From the IMG/VR virus record IMGVR_UViG_3300021310_000004: a stretch of DNA of 64,000 nt; one strand, 5' to 3'. This document shows positions 10,674 to 15,786 of this stretch, piece after piece. The DNA comes from a virus. Taxonomy: Duplodnaviria; Heunggongvirae; Uroviricota; Caudoviricetes. The notes beneath the pieces were generated by a model. That model was not told where the DNA came from. It saw only the letters and a list, made by a program, of their open reading frames with translations, and made no database searches. Every line of letters starts with the position of its first letter. Position 1 is the stretch's first letter. The position numbers and the translations under genes are program-made.

Positions 10674-10745
10674 AGAGGCAACAGGACTCGAACCTGTAAC
10701 GTTGAGGATCAAAGCCTCATGTTCTACCAATTGAACTATACCGCA
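10674..10745 (-). tRNA. tRNA-Gln(TTG)-like (two acceptor-stem mismatches)
   Basis: T-arm ACAGGTTCGAGTCCTGT; anticodon loop CTTTGAT. Confidence 0.45.
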
Positions 10746-10749
10746 TTAA

Positions 10750-10838
10750 CGCTCGCTACAGGACTCGAACCTGTGGACCAAATTTCTTTGATCAACTGAT
10801 TAGCAATCAGCCGCATTCACCAACTCTGCCAAACGAGC
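10750..10838 (-). tRNA. tRNA-Ser(GCT), type II
   Basis: cloverleaf hand-folded; loop TTGCTAA; long variable arm. Confidence 0.5.
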
Positions 10839-10842
10839 ATAG

Positions 10843-10916
10843 CAGGGGTAGAACGATTCGAACGCTCATAGAATCTTTCGATTCACGGTTTTGGAGACCG
10901 CTGTTTTACCATTAAA
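10843..10916 (-). tRNA. tRNA with CCA anticodon (Trp) and unusually extended variable region
   Basis: acceptor AGGGGTG/TACCCCT, loop CTCCAAA, 16-nt hairpin variable region. Confidence 0.4.
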
Positions 10917-10932
10917 CTACACCCCTATATAG

Positions 10933-11012
10933 AGATCCAGGTGGGATTTGAACCCACAACAATGTCATCCCAGATTTGCAGTCTGGAGCCTTACCAGTTT
11001 GGCTACTGGATC
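10933..11012 (-). tRNA. tRNA-Cys(GCA)
   Basis: perfect acceptor GATCCAG/CTGGATC; loop CTGCAAA. Confidence 0.5.
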
Positions 11013-11017
11013 ATAAA

Positions 11018-11099
11018 CGCCGTACACAGGATTCGAACCTGCAACCCATTACTGGGCCATGATTTTCAAGACCACTTCCTCACCACCCGGACATACGGC
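11018..11099 (-). tRNA. tRNA-Ser(TGA), type II
   Basis: loop CTTGAAA; variable hairpin CCCAGTAATGGG. Confidence 0.5.
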
Positions 11100-11103
11100 A
11101 TAT

Positions 11104-11250
11104 GAAATGAAACGCTGTGTCTGGGACTTGATTCTCAGCTACCGCTTCGGTCGGTGCTTCTACTTCGTAGAGGTGTCCACTGGACACCCGCACCCCAGAA
11201 GCCATCGCTGGCACCGGCTTTCGAGGTCGGTGTGTTTACCATATTCCACC
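11104..11250 (-). ncRNA. GC-rich structured spacer (stacked perfect hairpins GGTGTCCagtGGACACC, CTTCTACttcgTAGAAG) between tRNAs
   Basis: hairpins read directly; no ORF (11059..11397 ORF rejected). Confidence 0.3.
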
Positions 11251-11264
11251 AACACAGCTTATAG

Positions 11265-11346
11265 CGCCACCGATAGGATTCGAACCTATATACCCGTTAA
11301 GGCTACTGCGTTCCAAGCAGCTGCTCTACCATTGAGCGACGATGGC
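11265..11346 (-). tRNA. tRNA-Ser(GGA)-like, type II
   Basis: loop TTGGAAC, T-arm ATAGGTTCGAATCCTAT. Confidence 0.4.
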
Positions 11347-11577
11347 ATTAAAAAAGCACTCATTCAATTCATGGAGAAAAGAACAAGTGCCTTCTAGCTA
11401 AAATATATACTTAGTGCCGGAATACCGGTCATAATGTACCATTTTTGTTCCCATGAATCGTAACTATTGAATTTGCACCACAAATAGACCAACGACAAGA
11501 CTGTGATTGGCTACTAATGCTCTGTGAAATTCGTCTAATTACTAAGTTCTTCATGGTTTTTATTCCTTTCTACATTA

Positions 11578-11955
11578 TTATCTAAATTTGTAATATCGAT
11601 TTTCTTTCGTAAACATAGAAATATCTCCAGATGACATTCCGCTTTGTTCTTCTATTGATATCACAGGATGCCATACAGGGAATGGTTTTCCATGTATTAC
11701 ATGTGGCTGAAATCTGCAACGATATATTTTACCATCTACAATCCACTTCAATCCTCTAAATTCGAACAAAAGTCCATTAGCAGCGCTTCCAACGCAACAA
11801 AAATCTCCAGGACGAATAAAATCAGAAACTATAGACATGTTTATTCCATCTTTATTTTGCACTGCCTTTTCGATGATACTGTATAACAACTCTATTTCAG
11901 CGCTGCTATATTCAAATGGTTCAATCATATTTATGTTCCTTTTTACAAGAATCAT
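11578..11955 (-). CDS. hypothetical protein
   Basis: ORF between tRNA blocks. Confidence 0.35.
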   Translation of the reverse strand: MILVKRNINMIEPFEYSSAEIELLYSIIEKAVQNKDGINMSIVSDFIRPGDFCCVGSAANGLLFEFRGLKWIVDGKIYRCRFQPHVIHGKPFPVWHPVISIEEQSGMSSGDISMFTKENRYYKFR

Positions 11956-12060
11956 TCCTTTCTCATTCTCTCCGCAAAGAGCGAGCTTTCATCAAGCCGA
12001 TAATACGACGCATCGCTTACCGTGCCGCTATGGCTATCCGAAGATACCGACGGGATATAG

Positions 12061-12135
12061 TTGCGGATATGGGAGTCGAACCCACTATTTCAAGTTTATG
12101 AGGCTCGTGTGATAAATCCGTTTCACTCATCCGCA
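12061..12135 (-). tRNA. tRNA-Met(CAT) family (Met/fMet/Ile2 not distinguishable)
   Basis: perfect acceptor TGCGGAT/ATCCGCA; loop CTCATAA. Confidence 0.55.
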
Positions 12136-12136
12136 A

Positions 12137-12209
12137 AGCTTCCTGAGGGAGTCGAACCCACGACCGTCTGATTACAAATCAGATGCTCTACCAACTGAGC
12201 TAAGAAAGC
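12137..12209 (-). tRNA. tRNA-Thr(TGT)
   Basis: stem TCTGA/TCAGA loop TTTGTAA. Confidence 0.6.
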
Positions 12210-12300
12210 ATATTGGGGCGGTTGGCGAGACCGTTTTCTGCTCTTGGCTTCCCAAAGCCTCAAAGTGTTTTCCCTGGGAACATACACATAACCCACGTAA

Positions 12301-12374
12301 TGATTCCAGGGAGACTCGAACTCCCATTTCCGACTTGAAAGGCCGGTGAACTAGACCAGTTATTCGATGGAACC
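12301..12374 (-). tRNA. tRNA-Glu(TTC)
   Basis: loop CTTTCAA. Confidence 0.6.
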
Positions 12375-12459
12375 ATATTAGCGGAATCCTGGGTTTCTAC
12401 CAGTGTTTACCTCGCTCCGAATATCGGGGCAAGGGCTTGCGTTAGGCAAATCCCGCCAG

Positions 12460-12532
12460 AACAGGTAACGGGGATCGAACCCGTGTATCCGACTTGGCAA
12501 GCCGGTGCTTTAACCAACTAAGCTACACCTGC
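12460..12532 (-). tRNA. tRNA-Gly(GCC)
   Basis: loop TTGCCAA. Confidence 0.6.
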
Positions 12533-12666
12533 ATATCCGGTGCAAATTGATATCATGGCCGGGATATCAATCCATAGGTACTTCTAACCGGACGTACCCA
12601 AACCCCTGTCTTGGCCTTCGACTTGACTCACAAGAGTCTGACATTGCCATAGGAATTGCAACGTTA

Positions 12667-14022: not shown

Positions 14023-14027
14023 ATAAG

Positions 14028-14112
14028 TGCTCCCGATGGGACTTGAACCCATACGTCATTTAAGACCTCGGTTTTTAAGACCGATGCGTGCTGCCAATTA
14101 CGCCACGAGAGC
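14028..14112 (-). tRNA. tRNA-Leu(TAA), type II
   Basis: loop CTTAAAA. Confidence 0.5.
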
Positions 14113-14199
14113 ATGTGCTATTCAGTTTTAAGTTCATAAGTCGGAGTCGTAATCGTAACAACATCGTTTTTTAATTCCTTTCTTTTAATATCTATAAAG

Positions 14200-14282
14200 A
14201 GCTCCGTGTAGGATTCGAACCTACGTGAGGTTTCCCTATCTGCTTACAAGGCAGGTGCAATCGTCCACTATGCGAACGGAGC
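14200..14282 (-). tRNA. tRNA-like, anticodon reading TGT with 14-nt variable region (atypical)
   Basis: acceptor GCTCCGT/ACGGAGC, loop CTTGTAA. Confidence 0.35.
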
Positions 14283-14349
14283 ATATAATAGATTAGAACT
14301 GCGATGTTCCGATTGGATACGGTTAGTCCACAGACTAATCTATTTTAAG

Positions 14350-14421
14350 AGCACTATACGGGATTCGAACCCGTGTCCCCGGCTTGGAAGGCCAGAATCT
14401 TGACCACTAGACGAATAGTGC
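14350..14421 (-). tRNA. tRNA-Gly(TCC)
   Basis: loop CTTCCAA. Confidence 0.6.
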
Positions 14422-14533
14422 ATATGTGAAAGTCTTTTGCGGTGGCAATCAACGCCAAACCTATTATCCATTCTGGATCGTGGCTCCTGCACCATTGTTG
14501 CTTTGTTCCTATCGGGACCCGCGACTTTCACAG

Positions 14534-14606
14534 TGGAGTATACGGGGATCGAACCCGCCATCTTCTGGTTGCAAGCCAGACGGCACCCCATTGCGCCTTA
14601 TACCCC
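14534..14606 (-). tRNA. tRNA-Ala(TGC)
   Basis: loop CTTGCAA. Confidence 0.6.
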
Positions 14607-14609
14607 ATA

Positions 14610-14690
14610 TATTACGGTGTACTGTAGCCGGATTCGAACCGGCGCATCACTACCACTGTAGCTGCCTTAACCGCTTGGCTATACAGCGCC
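14610..14690 (-). tRNA. tRNA-like element, anticodon undetermined
   Basis: T-arm GCCGGTTCGAATCCGGC, D-arm AGCCAAGCGGTTAAGGC; anticodon arm non-canonical. Confidence 0.3.
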
Positions 14691-14798
14691 TGTAACCTTC
14701 TATAATCTCTTAGGCACCGTGTCATTAGGGCTAATTAACTATAGGACCAGCAAGACGTACTAAAATCTGACTAAAAATTAGTACCGCTTGGAATTAAG

Positions 14799-14872
14799 CG
14801 ACTACAGTGGGACTCGAACCCACGATCTCCTGATAGACAGTCAGGCGGATTAACCAACTCTCCTATGCAGCC
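14799..14872 (-). tRNA. tRNA-Asp(GTC)
   Basis: loop CTGTCTA. Confidence 0.6.
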
Positions 14873-14954
14873 ATATCATCCGGAGCCTTTCTTACTCCGG
14901 ATATATTATTTTTGTTCGTAGATAAAGAAGTGCCTGTTTTCTTATATCCACTAA

Positions 14955-15027
14955 TCACCTCTGTGGGATTCGAACCCGCGTTTCGAGATTGAGAATCTCG
15001 TATCCTAGGCCTCTAGACGAAGAGGTG
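14955..15027 (-). tRNA. tRNA-Glu(CTC)
   Basis: Glu-type D-arm TCGTCTAGAGGCCTAGGA; loop TTCTCAA. Confidence 0.55.
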
Positions 15028-15047
15028 ATTCATAATGTTCACAGAAT

Positions 15048-15150
15048 CAATGCAGATGGATTCGAACCACCGCTCTATCCGCCCTGTCCGGGCGTTGTTT
15101 TGCCTTTGGAGTATGTCGGCTCCTACAAACTATACACCGTATGTGAACAT
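15048..15150 (-). tRNA. long tRNA-like element (about 100 nt), anticodon undetermined
   Basis: T-arm GGTGGTTCGAATCCATC; no canonical fold found by hand. Confidence 0.25.
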
Positions 15151-15248
15151 TATCTTCTGCCGTATTGATTACACCTCTTGTCCTCAGAGGAATCGACAGG
15201 ACTTGTACCCAACATACTTGGACTTTGTACATCGAATACAAGAATTCA

Positions 15249-15321
15249 GTGTCCCCGGATGGAATCGGACCACCGCGTTCCGGGCTTCAACCGGATGCTC
15301 TGCCAACTGAGCTACAAGGAC
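15249..15321 (-). tRNA. tRNA-Phe(GAA)
   Basis: stem TCCGG/CCGGA loop TTGAAGC. Confidence 0.55.
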
Positions 15322-15431
15322 TTGTTTGAAGCATTAAAGTCGCTTCAATTCACTGCGTATTTTATTAAGGTAACATTTGCTCTAACCCTTCGCGCCAGAT
15401 AAAACATATGTTAAACCCGGTACGAGTCCCA

Positions 15432-15515
15432 AGCCAGAGAGTCGAACTCTGCGAGCACAAGTGCGGAGGATTTACAGTCCACCCCGTCTCCGTAACGGTT
15501 TAGCAAGGGTTACTT
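15432..15515 (-). tRNA. type II tRNA-like, GTA (Tyr) anticodon reading; acceptor imperfect
   Basis: loop CTGTAAA; T-arm CAGAGTTCGACTCTCTG. Confidence 0.3.
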
Positions 15516-15602
15516 ATATTGGTTGCTATAATAATAATCAACCATACTATCACCTTCCTTTTGTATTTGTTTTGATAAAGGGTGCCTGTTCCTTCATCGT
15601 AG

Positions 15603-15675
15603 CGGGTCCAACAGGCTTCGAACCTGTGACCTTCCGGTTAACGGCCGGACGCTCTACCAACTGAGCTATGGATCC
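15603..15675 (-). tRNA. tRNA-Asn(GTT)
   Basis: loop CCGTTAA. Confidence 0.6.
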
Positions 15676-15786
15676 AAAATAAAAAGCCATCTATGATGGT
15701 TCTACTCCATTCACAGACGGCTTAAATCGCTCGTATATTAGCTTCTATAACCTTTTATAACGGTTAGGATACATTTCCTAGTCCCA

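Follow-up and report, generated by a model that had tools for sequence, protein, structure and literature searches.

Transfer RNA (tRNA) clusters are ordinary in phages. To our knowledge, the textbook rule is that in bacteria only the tRNAs for Leu, Ser, Tyr and selenocysteine (Sec), which form class II, carry a long variable (V) arm. The tRNA regions of phage T5 (NC_005859) and of large phages hold dozens of co-oriented tRNA genes, which lie mixed with or next to small open reading frames (ORFs) and an HNH endonuclease, and those of T5 are interspersed with 'tRNA-like stable RNAs' of 73-144 nucleotides (nt), namely RNA1 (144 nt), RNA2 (125 nt) and RNA3 (73 nt). In metagenomic phage tRNA clusters, allo-tRNAs combine a long V arm with anticodons other than those of Ser (Mukai et al. 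2017, PMC5389517). These traits are found again in the locus described here, a tRNA cluster at positions 10673-15675 of a 64,000-nt stretch of DNA (the whole of it is hereafter called the window) from the IMG/VR virus record IMGVR_UViG_3300021310_000004. The unusual part of this cluster is its class-swapped tRNAs. Those for Trp and His and one of two for Thr(UGU) carry a hairpin in the V region, and one tRNA-Leu lacks it. We consider it probable that the cluster is a codon-supply operon whose class-swapped members are cognately charged and functional, and that the state of the arm may mark the viral tRNAs off from those of the host.

Class-swapped tRNAs in the cluster

The tRNA genes were called with ARAGORN and scored with Infernal against the Rfam family RF00005, which has a gathering threshold of 29 bits. 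ARAGORN reported 36 RNA genes in the window, 25 of which are minus-strand tRNAs within the cluster. All 25 lie at or above the gathering score, with 31.7-73.5 bits, the weakest being Ser(UGA), Ala(UGC) and His(GUG) at 31.7, 32.7 and 40.1 bits, respectively. A 26th tRNA (14619-14688, 40.2 bits) was added by Rfam when a smaller search space was used. With 26 co-oriented tRNAs on one strand in about 5-5.5 kilobases (kb) of a mobile element, the locus is a tRNA array, and all genes and tRNA-like elements of the cluster that are located below are on the minus strand. This agrees with a preliminary description made by hand, which had counted at least 25 tRNAs and had listed their anticodons correctly; its sole omission was that Thr(UGU) is present twice, as a canonical gene of 73 nt and as a V-arm gene of 84 nt. 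Between them, these 25 tRNAs serve 17 amino acids, with no gene for Arg or Ile and no good one for Tyr. The 3' CCA is not encoded in any of the 25.

The tRNA-Trp(CCA) gene (10842-10926, 85 nt, 55.1 bits) has an ordinary bacterial Trp body with A1-U72, G5-C68 and G73. The identity set of the Escherichia coli tryptophanyl-tRNA synthetase consists of G73, A1-U72, G5-C68 and the CCA anticodon, and all four are found in this gene. The V region has 17 nt and contains a 14-nt hairpin, GAAUC-GAAA-GAUUC, with a stem of 5 base pairs (bp). The variable-arm hairpin had already been recognised on this CCA tRNA, but the gene had been placed at 10843-10916 and the hairpin given 16 nt, both of which are corrected here. 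With normal tRNA-Trp genes of phages the 5' half shares 85-91% identity, and the gene is 81% identical to a V-arm Trp from another IMG/VR locus (L121). It is the sole Trp tRNA called by ARAGORN in the window. From its sequence it looks like a Trp gene into which a hairpin was inserted, not like a converted Ser tRNA.

The V-arm tRNA-His(GUG) (12667-12752) was rightly described at first as a His anticodon on a type II, Leu-like body. It encodes G-1 at 12752, which pairs with C73, the hallmark of bacterial tRNA-His. Its V region of about 15 nt forms the hairpin CGGGA-GAAA-UCCCG with a 5-bp stem, the D and T arms are Leu-like, and the D arm is in the style of class II, with a 3-bp stem and a long loop. 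The acceptor stem has two mismatches, 4:69 and 5:68. The gene is 71% identical to a viral V-arm His (L097) and likewise 71% identical to a viral tRNA-Leu(UAG). The V-arm tRNA-Thr(UGU) (14199-14282, 52.6 bits) has a V region of about 14 nt with the hairpin AGG-GAAA-CCU, whose stem has 3 bp. It carries G1-C72, C2-G71 and U73, has G39 in place of U39, and is 80% identical to the nearest viral member of its family. The tRNA-Cys(GCA) (10932-11012, 81 nt, 63.1 bits) also has U73, and its 12-nt V loop (GAUGACAUUGUU) forms no stable helix; its nearest viral relatives are a tRNA-Tyr(GUA), with 75% identity, and a V-arm Cys, with 73%. The opposite architecture is found in the type I tRNA-Leu(CAA) (13864-13937, 74 nt, 58.1 bits), which has A73 and combines a 5-nt V loop with a D arm in the style of class II (a 3-bp stem and an 11-nt loop); here the earlier reading of a CAA anticodon on a body with a short V region is upheld.

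When structural class II is defined by a helical V region of more than 10 nt, the Trp, His and Thr members belong to it and Leu(CAA) does not. The nucleotides that specify identity are not those of Leu, Ser or Tyr: the anticodons CCA, GUG, UGU and GCA go together with G73, C73 plus G-1, U73 and U73, respectively. In ARAGORN and manual folds alike, the acceptor and T stems of the Trp, His, Thr and Cys members have 7 bp and 5 bp. Formal features of tRNA-Ser, a long V arm with G73 or U73, are present in Trp (G73), Thr (U73) and Cys (U73), but the conserved cognate elements argue against a Ser identity. Folding by software thus upholds the atypical members, and the sequences confirm them as seemingly intact genes and real structural variants, neither mis-parsed by hand nor decayed. 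The V-arm Trp, His and Thr, which the first account had thought possible decoys, carry cognate identity elements that point the other way, and they look like cognately charged, translation-competent tRNAs.

Codon usage was compared between 45 long ORFs of the window and one 20-kb chromosomal fragment of Butyrivibrio sp. ob235, a genus that was chosen as host proxy because homologues of a phosphatase flanking the cluster are 50-54% identical in Butyrivibrio/Lachnospiraceae. Several A/U-rich codons are used more in the window than in the proxy: UUA (0.28 against 0.08), UUG (0.22 against 0.09), CCA (0.44 against 0.07), CAA (0.32 against 0.17), GUA (0.37 against 0.24) and GAA (0.61 against 0.48). 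The anticodon set matches these enriched codons, each of the six having a cognate tRNA in the cluster. Codon supply, the usual role of tRNAs on mobile elements, is likely the role of the cluster.

Recurrence in viruses and the proposed role of the arm

The pattern used to search for further tRNAs of the Trp type consisted of the CCA anticodon loop, a GAAA-capped insert and the T loop. In IMG/VR it was found in 111 loci, in which ARAGORN called 83 tRNA-Trp of at least 80 nt. Dereplication of the V-arm Trp gave 56 unique sequences with very different stems. G73 is kept in 55 of the 56, and the 1:72 pair is A-U in 30, G.U in 12, U-A in 6 and G1-C72, the pair of tRNA-Ser, in 3. Judged by these nucleotides, the family carries the bacterial Trp identity set and not that of tRNA-Ser. 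A Ser-like D arm and a match to roseophage tRNA-Ser are seen in many of the viral V-arm Trp tRNAs. In the V stem, the three pairs adjacent to the GAAA loop are formed, as Watson-Crick or G.U pairs, in 96-98% of cases, with 4-6 pair types each, while the same pairs in column-shuffled controls are formed in 40-51% on average and 68% at most. Since these loop-adjacent positions covary and are almost always paired, the hairpin appears to be under selection. For comparison, the Trp pattern gave 1 V-arm Trp among the 120 matches listed from 185,579 representative GTDB genomes. The Trp gene of the window itself had no match in a scan of the JGI metagenomes.

The Thr(UGU) pattern was found in at least 120 IMG/VR loci, and 105 of 119 loci carry a tRNA-Thr(UGU) of at least 80 nt. 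The V-arm Thr among the matches listed comprise 72 unique sequences, which combine a conserved D arm (UCGCAUAGUGGUCGAUUGCA) with the pairs G1-C72 and C2-G71, and canonical and V-arm Thr(UGU) occur together in 7 further viral loci. In these viral loci, V-arm His has G-1 and C73 in seven of seven cases and V-arm Cys has U73 in six of six; V arms are also found there on tRNAs for Lys(UUU), Asn(GUU), Glu, Gln, Val, Pro, Met and Asp. Loss of the long arm is common as well, since 47 of 128 unique viral tRNA-Leu (about 37%) are shorter than 80 nt, and 25 examples are consistent with A73. The odd types therefore recur in viral contigs, contrary to the textbook rule, and are nearly absent from the sampled cellular genomes. 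Each viral V-arm His gene comes after an ATG, the last G of which supplies the encoded G-1. About 1% of the tRNA calls in the viral clusters examined have anticodon loops of 6 or 8 nt.

Such genes are found in cultivable phages as well. An 86-nt tRNA-Trp bearing the hairpin CGGC-GCAA-GCCU is annotated in Caulobacter phage CcrColossus, and about 100 records of T5-like phages (coliphages and Salmonella phages) hold an 89-nt V-arm tRNA-Thr(UGU), which had no match in 5,426 complete E. coli genomes. At the corresponding place T5 itself has a 75-nt tRNA-Thr with no V arm. The 89-nt Thr(UGU) of phage JLBYU40 (1191-1279 of its locus) and the 75-nt form of T5 (2168-2242 of its locus) make a natural pair. 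These annotated examples sit unremarked: no account of phage tRNAs for Trp, Thr or His with a long arm was found in the open-access full text of PMC and bioRxiv, and older or paywalled accounts are possible.

Because each swapped-arm tRNA keeps the identity elements of its cognate synthetase, it is most likely charged with the amino acid that its anticodon specifies and used by the ribosome. There are precedents for both steps. V arms are tolerated by the ribosome and EF-Tu, as engineered V-arm hairpins are active in translation (PMC7590224), and the type I tRNALeu(CAA) of Streptomyces coelicolor is charged by leucyl-tRNA synthetase (LeuRS) (PMC6614811). Together with the cognate elements, these make correct charging and translational use the simplest reading. 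Gain or loss of the arm would make the tRNAs of the element structurally different from the host isoacceptors, and such tRNAs may escape host nucleases or toxins that target tRNAs, or survive an attack of the element itself on the host tRNAs. We infer this role from the recurrence of the architectures in viral contigs and their near absence from the sampled cellular genomes. That the arm state is a selected mark is suggested by this enrichment, by the coexistence of canonical and V-arm copies and by the opposite change in Leu. The PARIS nuclease AriB cuts between positions 40 and 41, and T5 variants of tRNA Thr(UGU), Lys(UUU) and Asn(GUU) neutralise it (PMC12409363). The cut site adjoins the V region, and all three of these isoacceptors occur with a V arm in viral loci, although the PARIS paper makes no mention of the variable arm (PMC12409363). 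Circumstantial support for nuclease evasion comes from the viral enrichment, the duplicate Thr(UGU) and the G39 that replaces U39 in V-arm Thr.

Several points weigh against this reading. For the codon usage of the host, one 20-kb Butyrivibrio fragment served as the only proxy, and the figure from the genome collection rests on the 120 matches listed, so that the enrichment is a ratio and not a census. No protein partner common to the 111 viral loci with a V-arm Trp was found, the largest protein cluster spanning 14 loci. The arm is not required for evasion, since in the tested case the tRNA-Lys of T5 works by point changes within its anticodon stem, T5's tRNA-Thr has no V arm, and the resistant tRNAs of T5 have the usual length. 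The long arm is the main determinant for seryl-tRNA synthetase (SerRS) (PMC7590224), and mis-serylation of Trp(CCA), which also has G73, is conceivable. The His(GUG) gene, with its two acceptor-stem mismatches, reaches only 40 bits. In addition, the Trp(CCA) and Ser(GCU) genes (10749-10926) are 100% identical to those of a related element, L010 (466-643), in which Cys is 69%, Gln 57% and a flanking protein 70% identical to the counterparts in the window. An identical pair amid diverged neighbours suggests that clusters exchange small tRNA modules, and the 100% identity probably reflects such an exchange rather than selection.

The alternative that survives best, although we hold it to be unlikely, is that the arm is neutral or merely stabilising, inherited from class II ancestors (Ser, Leu, Tyr) by anticodon shifts, and that the cluster does nothing beyond codon supply. 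A single mutation separates every V-arm anticodon seen from one of class II (CCA from CGA or CAA, UGU from UGA, GCA from GUA, GUG from GAG or GUA, and GUU from GUA). Combined with the likeness of Cys(GCA) to a viral tRNA-Tyr and of His(GUG) to a tRNA-Leu, this suggests that some V-arm families may indeed have arisen from class II genes in this way, and the codon match alone would account for the presence of the cluster. Such an origin leaves unexplained why the arm is fixed mainly in viruses, why canonical and V-arm Thr(UGU) coexist in the window and in 7 further loci, and why Leu has changed in the opposite direction; moreover, the Trp of the window is a plain Trp body with an inserted hairpin.

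It is still harder to accept that the V-arm tRNAs are mischarged, recruiting SerRS or LeuRS and placing Ser or Leu at UGG, CAC/CAU and ACA codons as a deliberate recoding of the proteome or a poisoning of the host, comparable to allo-tRNAs or nematode nev-tRNAs. SerRS binds strongly to a V arm (PMC7590224, PMC7609411), and allo-tRNAs with non-Ser anticodons do exist (PMC5389517). The G73 of Trp(CCA) is used by SerRS as well, His(GUG) resembles tRNA-Leu in its D and T arms, and many viral V-arm Trp have the Ser-like D arms mentioned above. Yet the cognate elements are conserved: G73 is kept throughout the Trp family but for one sequence, A1-U72 is its commonest end pair and G1-C72 is rare, and G-1:C73 and U73 are present in every V-arm His and every V-arm Cys, respectively. 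A73 is the key determinant for LeuRS, and His(GUG) is without it. The V stems are short (3-5 bp), and missense insertion would harm the proteins of the element itself. Least probable of all is that the odd members are decaying or non-functional duplicates, left by recombination in tRNA arrays and with no selected role, for although some elements of the cluster are plainly degenerate (15426-15509, 15047-15139 and 11113-11258), the acceptor stem of His(GUG) is mismatched at two positions, the clusters are mosaic as the comparison with L010 indicates, and abnormal anticodon loops do occur among viral calls, the V-arm Trp, Thr and His and the type I Leu score 40-58 bits, belong to families of dozens of divergent members with compensatory changes in every stem including that of the V arm, keep their identity nucleotides across these families, and include in Trp(CCA) the only Trp tRNA that ARAGORN calls in the window.

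If the swapped-arm tRNAs are cognately charged and marked by their arm, as we favour, a wider suggestion may be made, which is tentative and which we would not be surprised to see fail. Gain of the V arm (in Trp, Thr, His, Cys, Lys, Asn and others) and its loss (in Leu) could be a widespread viral strategy to build a tRNA pool that is orthogonal to that of the host, still charged by the host and accepted by the ribosome, and unseen by immune nucleases and toxins or by the virus's own shutoff nucleases. The window would then be a Firmicute example, with at least four such tRNAs in one operon together with anticodon-less decoy mimics.

The probable operon, its other RNAs and the carrying element

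A promoter-like site, TTGACA-17-TATCAT (11/12), lies at 16180-16208 on the minus strand, about 500 nt upstream of the first tRNA, and a terminator-like hairpin of 9 bp followed by seven T lies at 10644-10667 on the same strand, directly after the last tRNA; both are consensus matches only. With these two signals at its ends the cluster looks like a single transcription unit, and the region may be described as what looks like one co-oriented tRNA operon from 16208-16180 to 10667-10644, the expression of which we infer. Upstream of many cluster tRNAs, 4-8 nt read ...ATAT or ...TAT with U at -1, and C and a short A/T-rich trailer come after them. Two small ORFs without a family match lie within the cluster. 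One, of 84 amino acids (aa) (13556-13810), is also called as a gene in locus L001, and the other, of 125 aa (11578-11955), has its sole homologue in an unrelated contig. A 116.8-kb metagenomic contig has the identical set of 25 tRNA genes and contains positions 10600-15700 of the window exactly.

The ordinary members called by ARAGORN are, from the high-coordinate end, tRNA-Asn(GUU) (15602-15675, 63.7 bits), Phe(GAA) (15249-15321, 58.3 bits), Glu(CUC) (14954-15028, 52.8 bits), Asp(GUC) (14798-14872, 62.1 bits), Ala(UGC) (14533-14606, 32.7 bits), in which G3.U70 is read from the sequence, and Gly(UCC) (14349-14421, 63 bits). They are followed by two Leu genes of class II, the ordinary Leu(UAA) (14027-14112, 56.2 bits) and Leu(UAG) (13941-14022, 52.8 bits), by Lys(UUU) (13369-13440, 73.5 bits), Lys(CUU) (13242-13315, 61.4 bits), Val(UAC) (13137-13209, 54.9 bits), Pro(UGG) (12891-12965, 68 bits), Gly(GCC) (12459-12532, 65.9 bits) and Glu(UUC) (12300-12375, 57.3 bits), and by the canonical Thr(UGU) (12137-12209, 69.1 bits). 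The tRNA with the CAU anticodon (12060-12135, 46.8 bits) is that of Met or Ile2. The remaining members are Ser(GGA) (11264-11346, 61.7 bits), Ser(UGA) (11017-11100, 31.7 bits as a tRNA), Ser(GCU) (10749-10839, 57.6 bits) and Gln(UUG) (10673-10745, 58.1 bits). As a tRNA-Sec, the Ser(UGA) gene (11018-11100) reached 35 bits against a threshold of 47, and its anticodon, UGA, is that of Ser, so that this assignment was rejected.

Four elements depart further from a decoding tRNA. The 26th tRNA corresponds to a His-like element at 14616-14689 whose acceptor, D and T arms are good and whose acceptor stem has an eighth pair that resembles G-1:C73. Its anticodon arm, GCUAC-AGUG-GUAGU, has a loop of 4-6 nt that contains GUG, and under the relaxed ARAGORN threshold (ps90) it is called tRNA-?(Thr|His) with a 2-nt anticodon. 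With such a short loop it is presumably unable to decode normally. An abnormal anticodon arm had been noticed here before, but the element, with about 72 nt, is not long. The element at 15047-15139 (24.8 bits, below the threshold of 29) is tRNA-like, if weakly, in line with the first account. It has a normal acceptor and T arm, an insertion of 26 nt in the D loop, the anticodon loop CGGACAG with G33, and a fold z-score of -3.2, and it is bracketed by a 12-bp inverted repeat (ATAATGTTCACA / TGTGAACATTAT). The degenerate Tyr(GUA)-like element at 15426-15509 was called solely by ARAGORN at ps90, with no Rfam report even at E<=10. It had been said to lack a canonical anticodon arm; instead, its anticodon loop has 7 nt. 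It further has A73 and a short V hairpin, and its acceptor stem contains two U.U mismatches. The fourth element, at 11113-11258, was absent from the earlier account. It is a Ser(CGA)-like RNA of 146 nt (27.3 bits, again sub-threshold) with the acceptor GCUGUGU/ACACAGC, G73, the anticodon loop CUCGAAA and a branched V region of about 80 nt.

The elements at 14616-14689, 15047-15139 and 11113-11258 are thus not expected to decode normally, and could be decoys or processing elements, as had been proposed for the odd members in general. The third proposal, suppressors, finds no support, as the ARAGORN anticodon table contains no stop anticodon (CUA, UCA or UUA). Probably these anticodon-defective elements serve without decoding, be it as decoys, as scaffolds for processing or as stable RNAs of the T5 kind. 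Reading TGA, TAG or TAA as sense merges no neighbouring ORFs, and stop-codon recoding was rejected. The 45 long ORFs end in TAA (27), TAG (15) and TGA (3); the rarity of TGA as a stop comes with no sign that it is read as sense. Several spacers fold much better than shuffled controls, with z-scores of -5.7 (14873-14953), -5.1 (14283-14348), -3.8 (14422-14532) and -3.0 (12376-12458). These well-folding spacers often pair their own two ends, and that at 12376-12458 has a three-hairpin, cloverleaf-like fold. The predicted structures fit processing hairpins or small stable RNAs.

The carrying element is a mobile element of more than 116 kb, associated with Lachnospiraceae/Butyrivibrio in the rumen or gut, and could be either a phage or a phage-like plasmid. 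The first account had called such a tRNA load typical of jumbo phages or megaphages, a kind to which the element may belong. It was found on contigs of up to 116.8 kb in several metagenomes, among them ERZ27247020 k141_26781, which exceeds 116 kb. A scan of about 30 ORFs against Pfam and PHROGs gave no capsid, portal, terminase or tail family, and no structural genes were found among those called in the approximately 10 kb beyond the high-coordinate end of the window, where a related contig encodes a RecD2-like helicase, HU and a 1662-aa protein. These negatives hold for the readable parts, which leave out roughly 50 kb of the longest contig. An ORF with NlpC/P60 (60315-64000, minus strand) runs past the end of the window and has 1662 aa on the related contig. 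The ParM-like partition protein is 23-28% identical to ParM of Firmicute plasmids and had no match in the phage collection, and the plasmid collection had no DNA match to the element. No close relative was found among GenBank phages, where the matches were generic to tRNAs, or in IMG/VR through the flanking phosphatase, which gave one 30% match without tRNAs. Besides L010, homologues of this metallophosphatase are in chromosomal Butyrivibrio loci or on contigs without tRNAs.

The content of the element is phage-like: it has an HNH endonuclease, a salvage set for nicotinamide adenine dinucleotide (NAD+), a transfer-messenger RNA (tmRNA), a ROOL RNA and kinds of tRNA known otherwise from viral contigs. 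Also encoded in the window are an integrase, a 5'-3' exonuclease (which lies beside the cluster, as does the HNH endonuclease), a PAPS-reductase-like protein and a non-specific endonuclease. The complete NAD+ salvage set (19536-23456, minus strand) comprises NAD synthase, NAPRTase, an NMNAT-like cytidylyltransferase, an isochorismatase/nicotinamidase-like protein and Nudix-NrtR, and we take it to resemble the NAD+ reconstitution pathways that phages use against NAD-depleting defences. For a 153-aa ORF (19060-19521, minus strand), PHROGs gave a weak match to polynucleotide kinase (phrog_415, E=3.5e-4), which makes a tRNA-repair function possible. A full-length ROOL RNA (RF03087, 251 bits; 34861-35444, minus strand) lies between tRNA genes and a DUF4317 gene (35619-36716). 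The tmRNA (46404-46754, minus strand, 82.7 bits) has the tag peptide ARSNVRPMAVAA and adjoins a gene for an exonuclease of the MYG1 family (46963-48300). More tRNAs and some irregular tRNA-like RNAs make up a further set on the minus strand (34156-44738), looser than the first. It includes a tRNA with a CAU anticodon that ARAGORN missed (41335-41408, 54 bits), a 124-nt RNA whose anticodon loop has 4 nt and whose V region has a 55-nt insertion (42304-42427), elements with a 36-nt anticodon region (42838-42928) and a 20-nt anticodon loop (43591-43679), and weak elements at 41696-41765, 41987-42066 and 44650-44729.

Comparison with known systems

A close parallel is that with T5 and its relatives, in the layout of the tRNA region and in the V-arm tRNA-Thr(UGU). 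T5 itself differs in its canonical 75-nt tRNA-Thr, there is no sequence similarity beyond the tRNAs, and the element described here may be a phage or a plasmid. Because genes of this kind are already present in cultivable T5-like phages, the question of the arm is directly testable in E. coli, for its effects on charging, on decoding and on the sensitivity to tRNA-cleaving defences such as PARIS, the targets of which include Thr(UGU). The genes also matter for annotation, in which they can be called pseudogenes or be given a wrong isotype, and they may provide synthetic biology with natural tRNAs that are competent in translation and have a handle free.

With the class II tRNAs of bacteria the V-arm members share the long variable-arm hairpin and, in His(GUG) and many viral members, the style of the D arm. 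In contrast to them, the anticodons and identity here are those of class I (Trp, His, Thr, Cys), and Leu(CAA) is armless. Nematode nev-tRNAs are reportedly charged with Leu according to their body, and hence mistranslate, as Hamashima and colleagues are said to have found in 2016. As far as they are cited by Mukai et al. (PMC5389517), they are V-arm tRNAs with class I anticodons; they are eukaryotic, whereas the identity elements here match the anticodon. In allo-tRNAs the acceptor/T stems are 8/4 or 9/3, the anticodon stem is long, the D arm is Sec-like and the identity is that of Ser (PMC5389517). The members described here have 7/5 stems, none being of the 8/4 or 9/3 type, with 5-bp anticodon stems and cognate identity. 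The (8/4) tRNAHis is without G-1 and has A73 or U73 (PMC5389517), while the His here has G-1:C73. In the same study, irregular tRNAs that bear G-1 are charged by histidyl-tRNA synthetase and are not used by the ribosome (Mukai et al., PMC5389517); they are the nearest described analogue of the element at 14616-14689.

The type I tRNALeu(CAA) of S. coelicolor (PMC6614811) shares both the anticodon and the short V loop with the Leu(CAA) of the cluster and has been shown to be leucylated. It is a cellular, actinobacterial tRNA that is independent of the canonical A73 (PMC6614811), a nucleotide that the tRNA of the window has. The last system to be compared is that of phage tRNAs which neutralise defences, and we know of no tRNA-cleaving defence of the host of this element. 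Those that act against AriB of PARIS (PMC12409363) and against retron effectors (PMC11555353) are, like the tRNAs here, viral copies of isoacceptors, including Thr(UGU), that differ in structure from those of the host. Their documented resistance is due not to a V arm but to point substitutions in the stem or loop of the anticodon; the likeness lies in a canonical and a variant Thr(UGU) that stand side by side.

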